From positions 1-5,645 of the forward strand of contig CAJINV010000117.1 in the NCBI GenBank assembly GCA_905178155.1: DNA of 5,645 nt, written 5' to 3'. The position numbers and the translations under genes are program-made. The notes under the pieces were generated by a model. It saw nothing but the letters and a program-made list of their open reading frames with translations. It ran no database searches and was not told where the DNA came from. Source of the DNA: Amoebophrya sp. A120 (lineage: Eukaryota; Protista; Dinoflagellata). Below are positions 1,771-5,645 of this stretch, in pieces; the first letter of the stretch is position 1, and every line of letters begins with the position of its first letter.

Positions 1771-2052
1771 TGAGCCATCGTCTTCGAAGTGATGCCCCGA
1801 GTTGCAAGTGCCTTGCTGACAGCCAGCCGTCGTCTGATGGTCGACGCACGTCGGCGGCCCGGTTAACGGCGTTCCGTGCTCGCATTTGCAGGTATTCACG
1901 ACGCAGTTTTTGGCTGAGCCATCGTCTTCGAAGTGATACCCCGAGTTGCAAGTGCCTTGCTGACAGCCAACCGTCACATCGTCGTTTACGCACGTCGGTG
2001 GCCCCGTTAATGCTGTTCCGTGCTCGCATTTGCAGGTATTCACGACGCAGTT
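1771..2052 (-). repeat. 144-bp (48-aa) coding tandem repeat, about 2 copies visible
   Basis: tgagccatcgtcttcgaagtgat at 1771 and 1915; NCVVNTCKCEHGTxLTGPPTCV...GCQQGTCNSGxHFEDDGS occurs twice. Confidence 0.95.
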
Positions 2053-2272
2053 TGCAGCGTCTAGGTGGTATCCAGCATCGCAATCGTGGCAAATCTCCGT
2101 ATTATGCGAGGTGCAGGCCGCCCCCGTCGCCTCATTGCCGTGCGGGCAAGTGCAGTCGTTCTGCACGCAGTTGTTCCCGCTTTTGTGATAGCCGGCCGTA
2201 GTGCAAGCAGTGCAGATCACCGCATCACGCGAGGTGCAAGCGGTGCCAGTCGCCTCCTCGCCGTGCTCACAT
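1771..2272 (-). CDS. Exon encoding cysteine-rich repeats (N-x-C-x-C-x-H-G...G...C...C...C...GYH...NC), runs into the gap
   Basis: Stop-free frame with four regularly spaced 6-Cys units: CEHGEEATGTAC..., NDCTCPHGNEATGAAC..., and NTCKCEHGT twice. Confidence 0.9.
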
Positions 2273-2277
2273 TTCAA

Positions 2278-2549
2278 TATGAGGGTGTCAGGTTTGAACA
2301 AATCGACAGAGCAGTAAGTCGTAATGCGTAAAGAGGACTGTTTGGGGCTAGAGATACTAGAGCTGCTCAAGTAGCATGACAGAGACAGTCTTCTTTGCCC
2401 ACCAAACAGCGCGGCAAACTACATTTAGGTGTTGCCAACATTTGTGATGCGCCGCTTAGAAATTGGGGGCCAAACTGGTGGCATCATCGTCTTTATGCGT
2501 GACAAAAAAATGCTGCAACTTTGTCGATTCCGCACCTGACGCTTCCATA
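2278..2549 (-). mobile_element. Inverted-repeat intron/introner, 272 bp, degenerate TIR of a distinct family
   Basis: Left tatgagggtgtcaggtttgaacaaatcgacagag vs reverse complement of right end tatggaagcgtcaggtgcggaatcgacaaag; flanks ttcaa/gtgca (2/5). Removing 2273-2549 gives NVC-T-CEHG, matching the repeat consensus. Confidence 0.8.
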
Positions 2550-2588
2550 GTGCAGACATTCTGCGTGCAAGTGCCTGCAGCGGTGTCC
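2550..2588 (-). CDS. 39-nt exon (E)DTAAGTCTQNVC(T)
   Basis: Lies between two TIR elements, is in frame on both sides, and supplies the C-x-x-N-x-C part of the Cys repeat. Confidence 0.82.
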
Positions 2589-2593
2589 TCGTG

Positions 2594-2807
2594 TATCCAA
2601 GACAAAAATTGTGCTCGTGTAACTTTCTTTGGCTGACAGCATCACAAGTTTGCTCTACATGACAGAGAAAACCTGTCATGCGTGGCTCTACATGTGAGGG
2701 AAAACACACATGAAAAGAGGACTTCACGCTTGTCTGGCATGACAGGTGTAACTCTGTTGCATGCTCTGCGTCTGCATTACAGAGTTACACAGTTTTTTTC
2801 TTGCATA
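2594..2807 (-). mobile_element. Inverted-repeat intron/introner, 214 bp, 20-bp TIR
   Basis: tatccaagacaaaaattgtg vs reverse complement tatgcaagaaaaaaactgtg (17/20); flanks tcgtg/tcatg (4/5). Removal gives GYH-E-DT. Confidence 0.85.
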
Positions 2808-2836
2808 TCATGGTATCCGGCTTTATCACAAGGACA
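2808..2836 (-). CDS. 29-nt exon CPCDKAGYH(E)
   Basis: Encodes the C..AGYH motif seen in the downstream repeats; in frame with both neighbours. Confidence 0.82.
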
Positions 2837-2841
2837 CTCAA

Positions 2842-3082
2842 TATGGATTGCAAACATGTCTGGGTGTAATGCCAAAAGTGAATGAGAGACGCACTACAAT
2901 ACGCAGCTATGCATGGCAAATTTTTTGGGTGCCATGTCTTACGTATTCCGCATGGCAAACTGCGTTTTTGCATGACAGGTAAGAGGGCCGTATCGCGCCT
3001 ATGCAACACAGATTCTCGAGTCATGCCAGACAAGCATGACAAACTTGCATTCTTCCAGACCCAGACATTTTTGCATTTGATA
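2842..3082 (-). mobile_element. Inverted-repeat intron/introner, 241 bp, TATCAAATG TIR family
   Basis: Right end 3052-3082 is an intact family TIR; left tatggattgcaaacatgtctgggtgt matches it 21/26; flanks ctcaa/cttca (3/5). Removal of 2837-3082 gives SLK-CPC. Confidence 0.85.
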
Positions 3083-3465
3083 CTTCAAACTGCTCTCAGC
3101 TCCGTCTGCGGCCTCGCAGGGGGCACCGCCGTTTGCCGCGGCTTGGGTCTGCGTGTACTTGCGCGTGAGGGTCTCTCCCGTGCCGGTGCACTGTTGCTCC
3201 AACTCCGCGTCCGAAGCTGCTACACTCCATGACCCCGTGCAGTCTTGCGGGGGCTCCATTTCGGGCACGCCACCGGGACGGCCGAACCGCACGTAGGAGG
3301 TGAGGAGAAGTGCGATTGGTGTCGCATCGTTGAACACGCAGCTGCCGTCGTCACAAACCAGTCCGGGCACGGTTTCGAAAAACTCGGGTTTGTATTGCCT
3401 GTCCAACCTTTTAGGCTCGCATTTGCTGTACAGAATGCACGCGCCAGTCAAATAGTTTGCCAAGC
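3083..3465 (-). CDS. 383-nt exon containing a thrombospondin type 1 (TSP1)-like module
   Basis: Stop-free frame. PQDCTGSWS...C...TLTRKYTQTQAAANGGAPC resembles the DC.GxWS...R...NGG.xC TSP1/spondin pattern (recognised by eye, no HMM run). Bounded by TIR elements on both sides. Confidence 0.85.
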
Positions 3466-3470
3466 AGTCC

Positions 3471-3753
3471 TATCACATGCAAAAATGTCTGGGTCTGGAA
3501 GAGTTCTAGATTTATGGTCATGCATATCTTAAATAACATGAGCCATGATGTCTGTGATGCATGCCGCAGCATCAGAGATTTTTAGAAAGCTTTGTGATAT
3601 AATCTCTACCGCATGAGAGATGCCCTCGTCCTTAAGTGGGACTACCAGCCCGGCCCCTATTGCGGGTCATGCAATACAAAGTGTTTTGGAATCTTCCACG
3701 GACAGCATCACAAGTTTAGAATCTTCCAGACCCAGACACTTTTGCATTTGATA
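3471..3753 (-). mobile_element. MITE-like intron/introner, 283 bp, TATCAAATG TIR family, 5-bp TSD agtcc
   Basis: TIRs 3471-3502 and 3722-3753 match 30/32; perfect agtcc at 3466-3470 and 3754-3758. Removal gives KED-CLANY. Confidence 0.93.
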
Positions 3754-3769
3754 AGTCCTCTTTCAGTAC
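3754..3769 (-). CDS. 16-nt micro-exon VLKED(C)
   Basis: In frame with 3083-3465 after TSD-aware removal and with 5096-5172 through the ctcca direct repeat. Upstream boundary has an alternative. Confidence 0.6.
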
Positions 3770-3774
3770 CTCCA

Positions 3775-5095
3775 TAACAGAAAAAAGCGTTCGCGTAAAG
3801 AACGGAATTTGTCATGAAGCGGAATGCATCACAAAAGAACGCGTCACAAAAATTGCCATGCACAGCATGTGCCTCCAATCTGTGAACATCAAAACCGTTC
3901 TCGCGGTAGGCGGCTACCACTCCCGGTGGCAGCGCCTTCGCGGCATTCCTTCGATGCACCGAGACAACCGAAGCTACGACTTCGAGCCGTAATAGGCCCG
4001 ACTCAGACTACATTATACTTCTCACACGAGCCTGAGCTCGTTGCTCAACCTCAATCCTCATTCGCCTCTGTCCCTACAGAGGCGTCGACTGGACCTGCAA
4101 GCTGTTTCTCGAACAGCTACCCCGAGCTTGCTTGCTTTCCACCAACGCACCGCGTTGGCACTTGTGCGAGCTTGTTGCAGTTCCCCGCTAGCTTGCACCA
4201 CCTGAGTGAAGTTTGTTAAGCGCCCCAGGGAGCAGATTCGAAATCTGTGCTACAGCTATTAAATAGCTTCTTACGAGAAACCTAATGTCGATCCTGAATT
4301 AAGATCAGGAACCTTTGGGCGCGTGAACCCAGAATTTGTAGAAGACCCCACGCTGATGAGATCTTCTCCACCACAGTGTAGAACTTCTTATGAGGACCCC
4401 AAGCAAAGATCTTAGTGAAACCAAGACCGTGACCAGATCCCCAGAAGATCTTTCTTCTCCAATCAGTGCGAGGGGACTTTTGCCCTTTCTAGCGCCTTGC
4501 GCTATTCTGGCACTCCAAGCGCGGCATAGCCACACAGGGAGGCGACTACAGCCCTGAGCATGGGTGGCTCGTCCGCTGCTCTTATGCAGGGACCTACGGG
4601 GGAAGGGGGCTAGTAGTTCTTACCTTTCCCACTTGGGGAATGGTTGGGCTCATAACTCTGTGGACGTCTCAAGCGTCAGGGACTAGGCATGCTCACTAGC
4701 ATGCTGTCCGAAGATAGAGAACAGAGTTACTATCTAAGCACCTACCTAGTAGGTACTACGGAGAGAAAGGGCTTTTTATTCTTCCAGCTACTGGCCCGTA
4801 GACCAGAAGCCATTCTGGCACTGTTGTGTGTACGTTGTTACCCTTGGTATGGATATCATCCTGTCACCATCATAGTGGTGTAGTGTGTGTGACCCATGTG
4901 GTCCTATTCATCCTAGTACCGTGATCCTACTCGTGTGACCCCTCTAGGCTAGTATTTGATCGTCTGCCTATCGGTATACTTAGAGCCTATCTCTTCGATC
5001 TCATTGATCTCAGGAGCATGCTAGCAACTGCTCTAGTCCGAGACAGGTTGCTGCGCAATCTGTGAACATCAAAACCGTTAACGTTAACACTTTTT
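3775..5095 (-). other. Intron flanked by 5-nt direct repeat ctcca, weak terminal IR, enlarged by a nested insertion
   Basis: ctcca at 3770-3774 and 5096-5100; agaaaaaagcgtt...aacgg vs reverse complement agaaaaagtgtt...aacgg; removal joins RLE-VLK in frame; 141 bp remain once the nested insertion and one 24-mer are removed. Confidence 0.6.
3876..5079. mobile_element. Unclassified 1156-bp insertion (3900-5055) between perfect 24-bp direct repeats
   Basis: caatctgtgaacatcaaaaccgtt at 3876-3899 and 5056-5079. No TIR, no TG..CA ends, no poly(A), no recognisable protein. Confidence 0.7.
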
Positions 5096-5172
5096 CTCCA
5101 ATCGCTTACCATCCTTTCGCTTACCGTCGGTTTGATATTGCAGCATAAACTCACAGCAGTTGTACGAGGGCG
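5096..5172 (-). CDS. 77-nt exon (P)PSYNCCEFMLQYQTDGKRKDGKRLE
   Basis: Open frame continuous with 5582-5606 after removing 5173-5581. Confidence 0.7.
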
Positions 5173-5177
5173 GCGGG

Positions 5178-5581
5178 TATCAAATGTAAAAATGTCTGGG
5201 TCTGGAAGAATGCAAGATTTGTGATGCAGGTTTTCCAGATAGCATGGCTGATGGCACTTAGGATGAAGGGGGCAGTCCTCAACCAATACACATTGGAAGA
5301 GGGGACCCCAACCCCCTGGGGGTGAAGAATCGAGGGTGGCATTGCCCTACAGAAAATGACCCATGAGGCAGGTTTTCCATGACCCATGAGGTCTGGAATG
5401 TGAGACCCAGCATGACAGATTTTGTGAGGTCTCTGTCATGCCTTTCCTGCATGAGAAACTCCCTCTCAACTGGGTCAAAAGCGGACAGCTTTTGGTACTC
5501 ACGCAACACAGATTTTTGCATCATTCAGATTTAGCATGACAAGTTCTAACCTTCCAGACCCAGACATTTTTACATTTGATA
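5178..5581 (-). mobile_element. MITE-like intron/introner, 404 bp, perfect 31-bp TIR, 5-bp TSD gcggg
   Basis: tatcaaatgtaaaaatgtctgggtctggaag at 5178-5208 and its exact reverse complement at 5551-5581; gcggg at 5173-5177 and 5582-5586. Confidence 0.95.
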
Positions 5582-5606
5582 GCGGGTCAAGCGTTCGATA
5601 AACGTG
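5582..5606 (-). CDS. ~20-25 nt micro-exon HVYRTLDP
   Basis: Sits between two TIR ends; frame joins to PPSYNCC. Confidence 0.6.
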
Positions 5607-5645
5607 TATCAACCGCAAATATGTCGTCTGGGTCCTCCACCTCTG
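5607..5645 (-). mobile_element. One end of a further TATCAA-family intron/introner, truncated by the window edge
   Basis: tatcaaccgcaaatatgtcgtctgggtc aligns to family TIR tatcaaatgcaaaaatgt---ctgggtc. Confidence 0.65.

Follow-up and report, generated by a model that had tools for sequence, protein, structure and literature searches.

Inverted-repeat transposon-like elements as probable introns without GT-AG ends in a cysteine-repeat gene of Amoebophrya sp. A120

The window analyzed here, a stretch of 5,645 nt from Amoebophrya sp. A120, contains five inverted-repeat, transposon-like elements (E1–E5) with 5-nt duplications. It is likely, at a probability of about 0.7, that these elements are removed from the pre-mRNA of a cysteine-repeat gene, probably by a spliceosome that is guided by the paired element ends and not by GT-AG. 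E1–E5 are an ordinary example of an already known class, since a description of it for A120 appeared in 2021 and a finer classification followed in 2025. The class itself, its TAT ends, 5-bp repeats, MITE-like origin and Ginger-like link are all already in print. The elements of the window are as follows.

2278..2549, no strand assigned: E1, an old TIR element of 272 nt with a decayed inverted repeat and no AAA motif; flank repeats 2273-2277/2550-2554 match at 2 of 5 positions
2594..2807, no strand assigned: E2, a TIR element of 214 nt; flank repeats 2589-2593/2808-2812 match at 4 of 5 positions
2842..3082, no strand assigned: E3, a TIR element of 241 nt; flank repeats 2837-2841/3083-3087 match at 3 of 5 positions
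3471..3753, no strand assigned: E4, a TIR element of 283 nt with a long terminal stem and a perfect 5-nt duplication, 3466-3470/3754-3758
5178..5581, no strand assigned: E5, a TIR element of 404 nt with a 31-nt perfect inverted repeat and a perfect 5-nt duplication, 5173-5177/5582-5586
5607..5645, no strand assigned: one end of a further TIR element, the rest of which is cut off by the window edge; it has 28-nt matches to element ends in loci of a close relative

The first-pass annotation had described five TAT..ATA elements at these positions, and all five were recovered, with pairing at 13, 17, 16, 18, and 20 of the 20 outermost positions in E1 to E5, respectively. They are not the full set, as the left end of a further element begins at 5607. 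Pooled over the five elements, the 5-nt flanking repeats match at 19 of 25 positions (chance approximately 2.5e-7). The motif TAT + seven variable bases + AAA is present at both ends of E2–E5 and at the end at 5607, and is absent in E1. The fold of E4 is far stronger than that of shuffled sequence (z -8.8), whereas that of E1 is no better (z -1.09). None of the five contains a coding remnant, and their ends are repeated across the genome, with a summed contig depth far above single-copy and many different flanks in run X1. E1–E5 thus fit the description of MITEs: short, non-coding, with TIRs, a target duplication of fixed length and many copies.

Related elements were collected from a close relative, in which 431 elements were found in 128 loci (541 kb), making up 20.7% of these loci. 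Each of E1–E5 has between 5 and 181 relatives in this set; E1 has 5, the best at 70–73% identity, and E3 is 89% identical to an element in locus L001. TAT..ATA termini are present in 416 of the 431 and the TAT + seven + AAA motif at both ends in 341. A perfect 5-nt duplication flanks 157 of 188 copies, against 1 of 188 with shuffled pairings; perfect duplications of 3, 4, or 6–10 nt occur in at most 1 of 188, and those of 6 nt in none. Genes for ABCG proteins, kinases, and phosphomannose isomerase are among those whose long frames contain such elements, and 210 of the 431 have at least 60 stop-free codons on both sides after removal of the element plus 5 nt, compared with 129–135 for frame-shifting lengths. 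Element pairs are on opposite strands in 135 cases and on the same strand in 127, which shows that either orientation is found in genes. In one ABCG gene the ABC signature is interrupted by an element; the junction obtained by removing this element plus 5 nt occurs letter for letter in the A120 model CAD7957043.1, and 6 of 6 homologues align across it without a gap. Among the exon pieces from these loci, 8 of 130 matched Pfam, 8 of the original 138 having been dropped beforehand as duplicates from overlapping loci. No base bias was seen at the target or duplication, and no terminal dinucleotide pair dominated in any register. Where the two copies of a duplication differ, the mismatch falls at position 5 in 0 of 14 cases, a signal too weak to use. 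An apparent second class with 6-bp duplications (4 unique cases) proved to be internal palindromes of 5-bp elements. The 128 loci contain no autonomous element that encodes a transposase between such ends; three long TIR pairs were without matching duplications, and inspection of long pairs showed mispairings. Protein searches from the loci gave no named A120 protein directly, but the cluster look-up gave one, and the idea of a second, distant lineage sharing these ends was therefore given up.

Farhat 2021 (PMC7789003) has reported A120 introner elements with inverted repeats of 8–20 nt or more, TAT + seven variable bases + AAA at their ends, a length of approximately 240 nt and no GT-AG, bordered by direct repeats of 3–5 nt (5 bp in the legend of Fig. 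S19), and genes carrying both intron types; the accessible text leaves the border position open. Nothing of substance separates E1–E5 from these introners as described there: organism, repeats and lack of GT-AG are shared, and the assignment of the window to an Amoebophrya introner system made in the first-pass annotation therefore stands, the DNA being from A120 and its elements fitting the published signature. The present analysis adds to the accessible text of that report a duplication measured as strictly 5 nt and an inferred cut register of 0–2 nt before TAT. Gozashti 2025 (PMC12130899) has described TIR DNA introners of A120 of approximately 150–390 bp with mostly non-canonical ends, including family 38, annotated as "Ginger, 5-bp TSD, TA/TA termini". 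E1–E5 resemble these introners, family 38 included, but are without a coding remnant; the 28-nt element end of the window was not found in 12 of the 14 supplements of that paper. IS3EU/GingerRoot elements (PMC10045372) also have TIRs and TA..TA termini, the latter common to all five elements here, with duplications usually of 6 bp as opposed to 5 bp. In Micromonas-type introners, one splice site lies in the element and the other is created in the duplication, which gives normal ends; in contrast, GT-AG is possible in only 3 of 97 oriented elements of the relative, and their duplications show no base bias. Inverted ends, duplication-like repeats and absence of GT-AG are shared with the MITE-derived introns of Fritillaria borealis (PMC11282704) and with euglenid nonconventional introns (PMC13326754). 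The ends in Fritillaria are mostly AG-AC or AG-AT and euglenids have their own pairing consensus, whereas here the terminal dinucleotides are free and either orientation works. No later mechanistic study of A120 introner splicing was found in the openly accessible literature.

The host gene is on the minus strand, and its exons were mapped as follows.

5582..5606, minus: exon for YRTLDP in the annotated protein; 5602-5606 probably represents the copy of the next element's duplication that lies in the intron
5125..5173, minus: exon of 48-49 nt, skipped in frame by the annotated model
3760..5124, minus: GT-AG intron of 1365 nt, likely canonical; donor GTAAGC at 5124, acceptor AG ending at 3760
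3876..5079, no strand assigned: low-copy insert of 1156 nt (3900-5055) nested in the canonical intron, with perfect 24-nt direct repeats at 3876-3899 and 5056-5079
3754..3759, minus: micro-exon of 5-6 nt that separates E4 from the canonical intron
3083..3470, minus: exon of which 3233-3469 matches the end of CAD7933150.1
2808..2837, minus: exon of 29 nt with the C-x(2)-AGYH part of the cysteine repeat
2550..2589, minus: exon of 39 nt with the middle of the cysteine repeat
1771..2273, minus: exon of cysteine-rich repeats that enters an assembly gap (N 1254-1770)

Segment 3233-3469 encodes the C-terminus of CAD7933150.1 with 100% identity; this is a partial A120 protein with a weak PAN domain upstream of the identical part. 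The model, which is transcript-based, runs across E4 and E5 as well as the next element; it ends at 3233, and E1–E3 therefore lie outside its coverage. The protein of exon 1771..2273 has 640 matches at E<=0.001, and no A120 protein identical to 1771-2271 is among the 150 listed. Purifying selection is not evident from two 48-aa repeat copies, which differ by 5 synonymous and 8 non-synonymous codons. The six frames of the window gave nothing above the Pfam cut-off; searches of Rfam and of viral contigs gave no match, and the Atlas search no usable one.

Excision of the five elements had been proposed to restore a single minus-strand frame. By itself it leaves 29–33 stops in all three minus frames, because a 1.4-kb intron between E4 and E5 had been missed. 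When the five elements with 5 nt each and the GT-AG intron 5124-3760 are removed, 342 stop-free codons result, and retention of any single element truncates the protein. For the gap between E4 and E5, a sixth TIR element was also considered, spanning 3767-5137, in frame, with a duplication of 6 nt (5 of 6 matching). It was demoted because the in-frame GT-AG intron, whose acceptor is a junction in the annotated protein, reproduces that junction exactly; the terminal bases of the candidate pair at only 8 of 20 positions, and its removal with 5 nt gives an open but wrong upstream frame.

Taking out the element together with one duplication will automatically restore the frame at any insertion of this kind. 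As the first-pass annotation had maintained, removal of the element plus 5 nt rebuilds the cysteine repeat over three junctions: the solution for E1–E3 is joint first among 1331 combinations of removal lengths scored against the intact repeats of the window, and second of 1107 scored on a repeat HMM built from homologues only (32.1 bits, median 5.3). The three unspliced frames across E1–E3 reach at most 4.0 bits on that HMM. Divergence of the duplications in three elements removes the usual ambiguity of alignment, so that the place of the cut can be read. At E1, cuts 0–2 nt before TAT score 30.9–32.1 bits on the homologue HMM and cuts 3–5 nt before it 20.8–22.7. For the element from 5607, the annotated protein has YFYR, not the HVYR that the downstream copy of the duplication would encode, which indicates a cut at 0–1 nt if a 5-nt duplication outside the window is assumed. 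The upstream cut is thus likely 0–2 nt before TAT, and the downstream cut would accordingly fall 3–5 nt after ATA. The earlier statement that no frame-keeping GT..AG exists holds inside the duplications of E1–E5, where none is present in any register, and GT at 3083 with AG at 2837 does shift the frame (247 nt, where 246 are needed). It does not extend to related dinucleotides, as E4, alone among the five, allows an exact frame-keeping GA..AG at 3757/3470 and E1 has a GC..AG pair of the same length, shifted by 7 nt.

In the proposed mechanism, a cut-and-paste DDE transposase, possibly integrase-like, would insert the element via a 5-nt staggered cut. The symmetric ends would fold back and mark both boundaries in either orientation. 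Cutting would take place 0–2 nt upstream of TAT, most likely at 1 nt, and 3–5 nt downstream of ATA. With cuts at those positions, exactly one duplication's worth would leave and the insertion would be silent for the protein. The nine commonest types of A120 non-canonical introns in published Table S4 all have T at position 2. That the E1 hairpin does not exceed shuffled sequence makes a model based purely on hairpins less convincing. According to the accessible published data, U2, U4, U5, and U6 snRNAs and 83 of 89 spliceosomal proteins are present in A120, U1 was not found, and such elements are absent from A120 RNA genome-wide (RNA-seq). The earlier claim of spliced MITE-derived introns in a functional gene is thus supported genome-wide for the class and only indirectly for this gene. 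In runs guessed to be RNA, contigs lay on exons and none on 2291-2420 or 3851-4500, and one X6 contig departs from the genome exactly at 3471, with 18 letters beyond that are not aligned. No spliced junction at the locus was among the 15 joints listed, none of which came from X5, X6, or X10 (274 more existed), and X10, the only raw RNA run compared, had no reads on the exons.

Several other explanations were weighed. Removal via nearby ordinary or dinoflagellate-type sites (GT, GC, or GA with AG), the non-canonical ends being only apparent, would suit the pairs in E4 and E1 and a GA..AG pair in E2 that is 3 nt longer. It is nevertheless very improbable: no G[TCA]..AG pair within 15 nt would keep the frame at E5, the nearest one in E3 costs 5 codons, the E1 alternative deletes a cysteine of a C-x-C motif, and such pairs occur in any register for only 8 of 97 oriented elements of the relative. 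Ciliate internal eliminated sequences may resemble such elements, and excision from the DNA in a transcribing stage would agree with TA-bounded ends and with independence from splice signals and orientation. This is scarcely to be expected in an organism with a near-complete spliceosome, for which one nucleus type is expected, and an X1 contig spans the whole of E1 without differences at single-copy depth (42.9 vs 47.6 on the exon).

A dead or silent gene, in which ordinary MITE insertions are never removed, would be compatible with the automatic restoration of the frame, the lack of X10 exon reads and the partial annotated model. We regard this as quite improbable in view of 342 codons without a stop or frameshift despite decay of three duplications and the E1 ends, a transcript-based model that crosses three elements, the share of such elements in the loci of the relative and their position inside long frames, and published RNA-seq that supports the class. 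A non-spliceosomal, end-recognizing nuclease that acts with a ligase at a fixed distance from the hairpin would account for removal independent of orientation and terminal dinucleotides, for the lack of a detected U1, and for the very strong terminal stems of young elements such as E4. It is rather unlikely, as the A120 spliceosome is otherwise well represented, a GT-AG intron seems present in the same gene, the E1 frame is intact though most of its stem is lost, and Fritillaria processes MITE-derived non-canonical introns by a modified spliceosome. It is likewise doubtful that A120 uses a machine, possibly other than the spliceosome, that takes no account at all of splice dinucleotides or orientation and places its cuts by distance from the paired ends, at 1 nt before TAT and at 4 nt after ATA.

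Overall, removal by a spliceosome guided by paired ends is the preferred reading, and the larger question is how tens of thousands of introns lacking GT-AG ends are spliced in A120, where U1 snRNA has not been detected. The E1 junction would report the register of the cut, with C-T-C-E for 0 nt, C-K-C-E for 1–2 nt, and loss of the cysteine for 3–5 nt. The gene would be a handy substrate, as it holds young elements, old elements, and a canonical intron in one transcript.

The five inverted-repeat elements that the first-pass annotation had recognized in the minus-strand cysteine-repeat gene (E1–E5) are all borne out in the sequence, each with a TAT start and an ATA end. They are genuine and plainly recognizable members of a published intron class, here in Amoebophrya sp. 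A120, the strain of its original description, and the class is already known.

Features within the minus-strand cysteine-repeat gene
E1, 2278–2549: TAT..ATA element; flanking 5 nt match at 2/5
E2, 2594–2807: TAT..ATA element; flanking 5 nt match at 4/5
E3, 2842–3082: TAT..ATA element; flanking 5 nt match at 3/5
E4, 3471–3753: TAT..ATA element; flanking 5 nt match at 5/5
E5, 5178–5581: TAT..ATA element; flanking 5 nt match at 5/5
Further element: starts at 5607
Probable ordinary GT-AG intron, 5124 (donor GTAAGC) to 3760 (end of acceptor AG): 1365 nt
Insert in the GT-AG intron, 3876–5079: 1156 nt between perfect 24-nt direct repeats

The GC content of E1–E5 is 43–47% vs. 59–62% in the larger exons, and 13–20 of the first 20 bases of each pair with the last 20. 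The flanking 5-nt matches sum to 19/25 (chance about 2.5e-7). E4 folds with a long terminal stem (z −8.8) and E1 folds no better than shuffled sequences (z −1.09), so that either a strong hairpin is unnecessary or E1 is dealt with in another way. Farhat et al. (2021; PMC7789003) have reported that 65% of 66,565 RNA-supported introns of A120 are non-canonical and that 29,850 introns are repeated. The introner elements described there are MITE-like, with no known transposase, average about 240 nt, carry 8–20-nt inverted and 3–5-nt direct repeats, and have at their ends TAT followed by seven bases and three or more A. Many of the A120 families have been assigned to the TIR DNA introners by Gozashti et al. 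(2025; PMC12130899); in their dataset family 38 bears a Ginger label along with a 5-bp TSD and TA/TA termini, and their main text describes it as without homology to known Gingers and without the termini and TSDs expected of them. IS3EU/GingerRoot elements resemble E1–E5 in their TA..TA ends but usually have 6-bp duplications (PMC10045372), which neither E1–E5 nor their sister elements show. Reviews cover the same class (PMC11282704; PMC11453091), and introns of another Amoebophrya genome are reported as mostly GT-AG (10.1101/2024.09.05.611473).

Sister elements were found through an exact 28-nt element end, which matches 128 loci. All lie in one metagenome assembly, indicating a single source, which is close to A120 judging from its ABCG gene (95–97% identical to CAD7957043.1). 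Among 191 unique end pairs, the 188 of 60–700 nt were examined for duplications; a 5-nt duplication was perfect in 157/188 and had at most one mismatch in 180/188. Perfect duplications of 3, 4 or 6–10 nt occurred in at most 1/188, those of 2 nt in 18/188, and shuffled pairings gave 1. A wider search requiring at least 4/5 duplication matches yielded 431 unique elements, compared with 10 in shuffled loci. The 431 make up 20.7% of the sister-locus DNA; 416/431 have TAT..ATA ends and 341/431 have TAT, seven bases and AAA at both ends. Among the 97 elements whose host strand was confident (see below), related cores face opposite ways in 135 pairs and the same way in 127. A subfamily of about 150 nt is almost wholly palindromic (L013:2775–2925, L034:3641–3785, L026:3064–3212) and is built of repeated internal motifs common with longer elements.

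Removal of an element plus one 5-nt duplication leaves at least 60 stop-free codons on each side in 210/431 sister elements, compared with 129–135/431 for frame-shifting lengths and 205–208/431 when 2 or 8 nt, which preserve the frame, are taken out instead of 5. The host strand was confident for 97 of them (4-nt and 6-nt versions of the rule pass 11 and 7), among which the duplication showed no base bias; 3 could be read as GT-AG and 8 as G[TCA]-AG. One sister element, L037:5001–5268, splits the ABC signature motif of the ABCG transporter gene; the junction left by removing it with 5 nt is present unchanged in the A120 model CAD7957043.1 and is ungapped in 6/6 homologues. This conserved gene offers a ready test case.

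At E1–E3, the same excision rebuilds the cysteine repeat as first proposed, ranking joint first among 1331 length combinations scored against the window's intact repeats. Against an HMM trained on 300 repeat units, out of 592 collected from 140 homologues, it reached 32.1 bits and ranked second among the 1107 combinations scored, whose median was 5.3 bits; no unspliced frame exceeded 4.0. The top combination differs solely at E3, by 3 nt, in a part of the profile that carries little information. Retention of any single element adds 2–15 stops. The claim that five excisions give one open frame stood only in part: the E1–E3 repeat is rebuilt, but the five alone leave 29–33 stops in every frame because the 1.4 kb between E4 and E5 is unaccounted for. 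This stretch is most plausibly an ordinary GT-AG intron of 1365 nt; once it too is removed, an open frame of 342 codons runs from 5601 up to the assembly gap (1770). Reading the stretch as a decayed sixth element, with a duplication of 6 nt, would preserve the frame as well, but the ends pair at only 8/20, and the GT-AG reading alone reproduces the annotated junction, in which a 48-nt exon is skipped. This in-frame exon (5125–5173) is missing from the NCBI model CAD7933150.1, through either exon skipping or an annotation miss. E4 lies about 1 nt into the exon that follows the canonical acceptor, so that a micro-exon of 5–6 nt (3754–3759), nearly all duplication, is left between them. The GT-AG intron contains one element-like remnant and the 1156-nt insert, whose first half is single-copy in depth and whose second half has a few related copies; its tested frames had no Pfam/Rfam match. 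With one repeat, the insert measures 1180 nt; Gozashti et al. (PMC12130899) list elements of this size beside A120 families 103 and 135, a possible link.

The exon at 3083–3469 matched a single protein among 287 candidates, the partial A120 protein CAD7933150.1 (100% identity over 60% of the query). The model extends upstream via YRTLDP (5583–5600). It thus spans E4, E5, the long intron between them and the element that begins at 5607; E1–E3 fall outside, since it ends at 3233. Gene models of A120 were derived by aligning transcripts and proteins. The product, inferred to be a secreted or surface adhesion protein, has a weak PAN match below cut-off (E 0.019), and its cysteine repeats recur in 640 proteins (E ≤ 0.001). 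Ten of these were checked for their source: two were from A120 and one from Gymnodinium. An N run (1254–1770, 517 nt), probably a collapsed 144-nt tandem array, conceals the 3′ part of the gene. Beyond it, 141–527 and 519–968 hold GC-rich tandem and inverted repeats with 12-, 106- and 224-nt spacings, with no match among the 128 sister loci.

Support from RNA is indirect here. Of twelve sequencing runs, four were compared, among them X5 and X6, which are only presumed RNA, and the raw RNA run X10. Low-depth X5/X6 contigs lie on exons (2071–2220, 3171–3367, 1802–1975, 3237–3471), with none on 2291–2420 or 3851–4500, and one X6 contig departs from the genome at the E4 border (3471), where its 18 further letters may cross a junction. 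X10 placed 217 reads on the window, none on exons and nearly all at 5495–5585. About 185 of these and one X5 contig carry an E5-like element end with flanks of another locus, an element fragment kept in an abundant RNA. A contig from run X1 covers E1 entirely at single-copy depth with zero differences.

Since any insertion of this kind restores the frame when removed together with one duplication, frame restoration establishes insertion and not splicing. The best reading is that a cut-and-paste transposase with a 5-nt stagger would insert the elements and that their paired ends would guide removal from pre-mRNA. The earlier statement that no frame-preserving placement within the flanks gives GT..AG holds for every register inside the duplications, but E4 allows an exact GA..AG; E1 has a GC..AG pair of the same length 7 nt away, and around E5 a search of 15 nt found no G[TCA]..AG pair that would preserve the frame. 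Our literature search found no paper that settles the splicing mechanism. Removal by a non-spliceosomal route is less likely; a modified spliceosome is favoured because A120 is reported to keep 83/89 spliceosomal proteins and U2, U4, U5 and U6, with U1 not found (PMC7789003). Cuts 0–2 nt before TAT at E1 keep the C-x-C motif (30.9–32.1 bits) and those 3–5 nt before lose it (20.8–22.7). At the element starting at 5607, the annotated protein reads YFYR, whereas HVYR would be expected from the downstream copy of the duplication. This suggests a cut 0–1 nt before TAT, provided that the element's unseen end bears a duplication of 5 nt. The nine commonest non-canonical intron types in Table S4 of Farhat et al. 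(PMC7789003) all have T second, as expected from a cut 1 nt before TAT, though aligner habits could shape that table. The worth of the locus lies in this inferred cut register and in its use as a test substrate.
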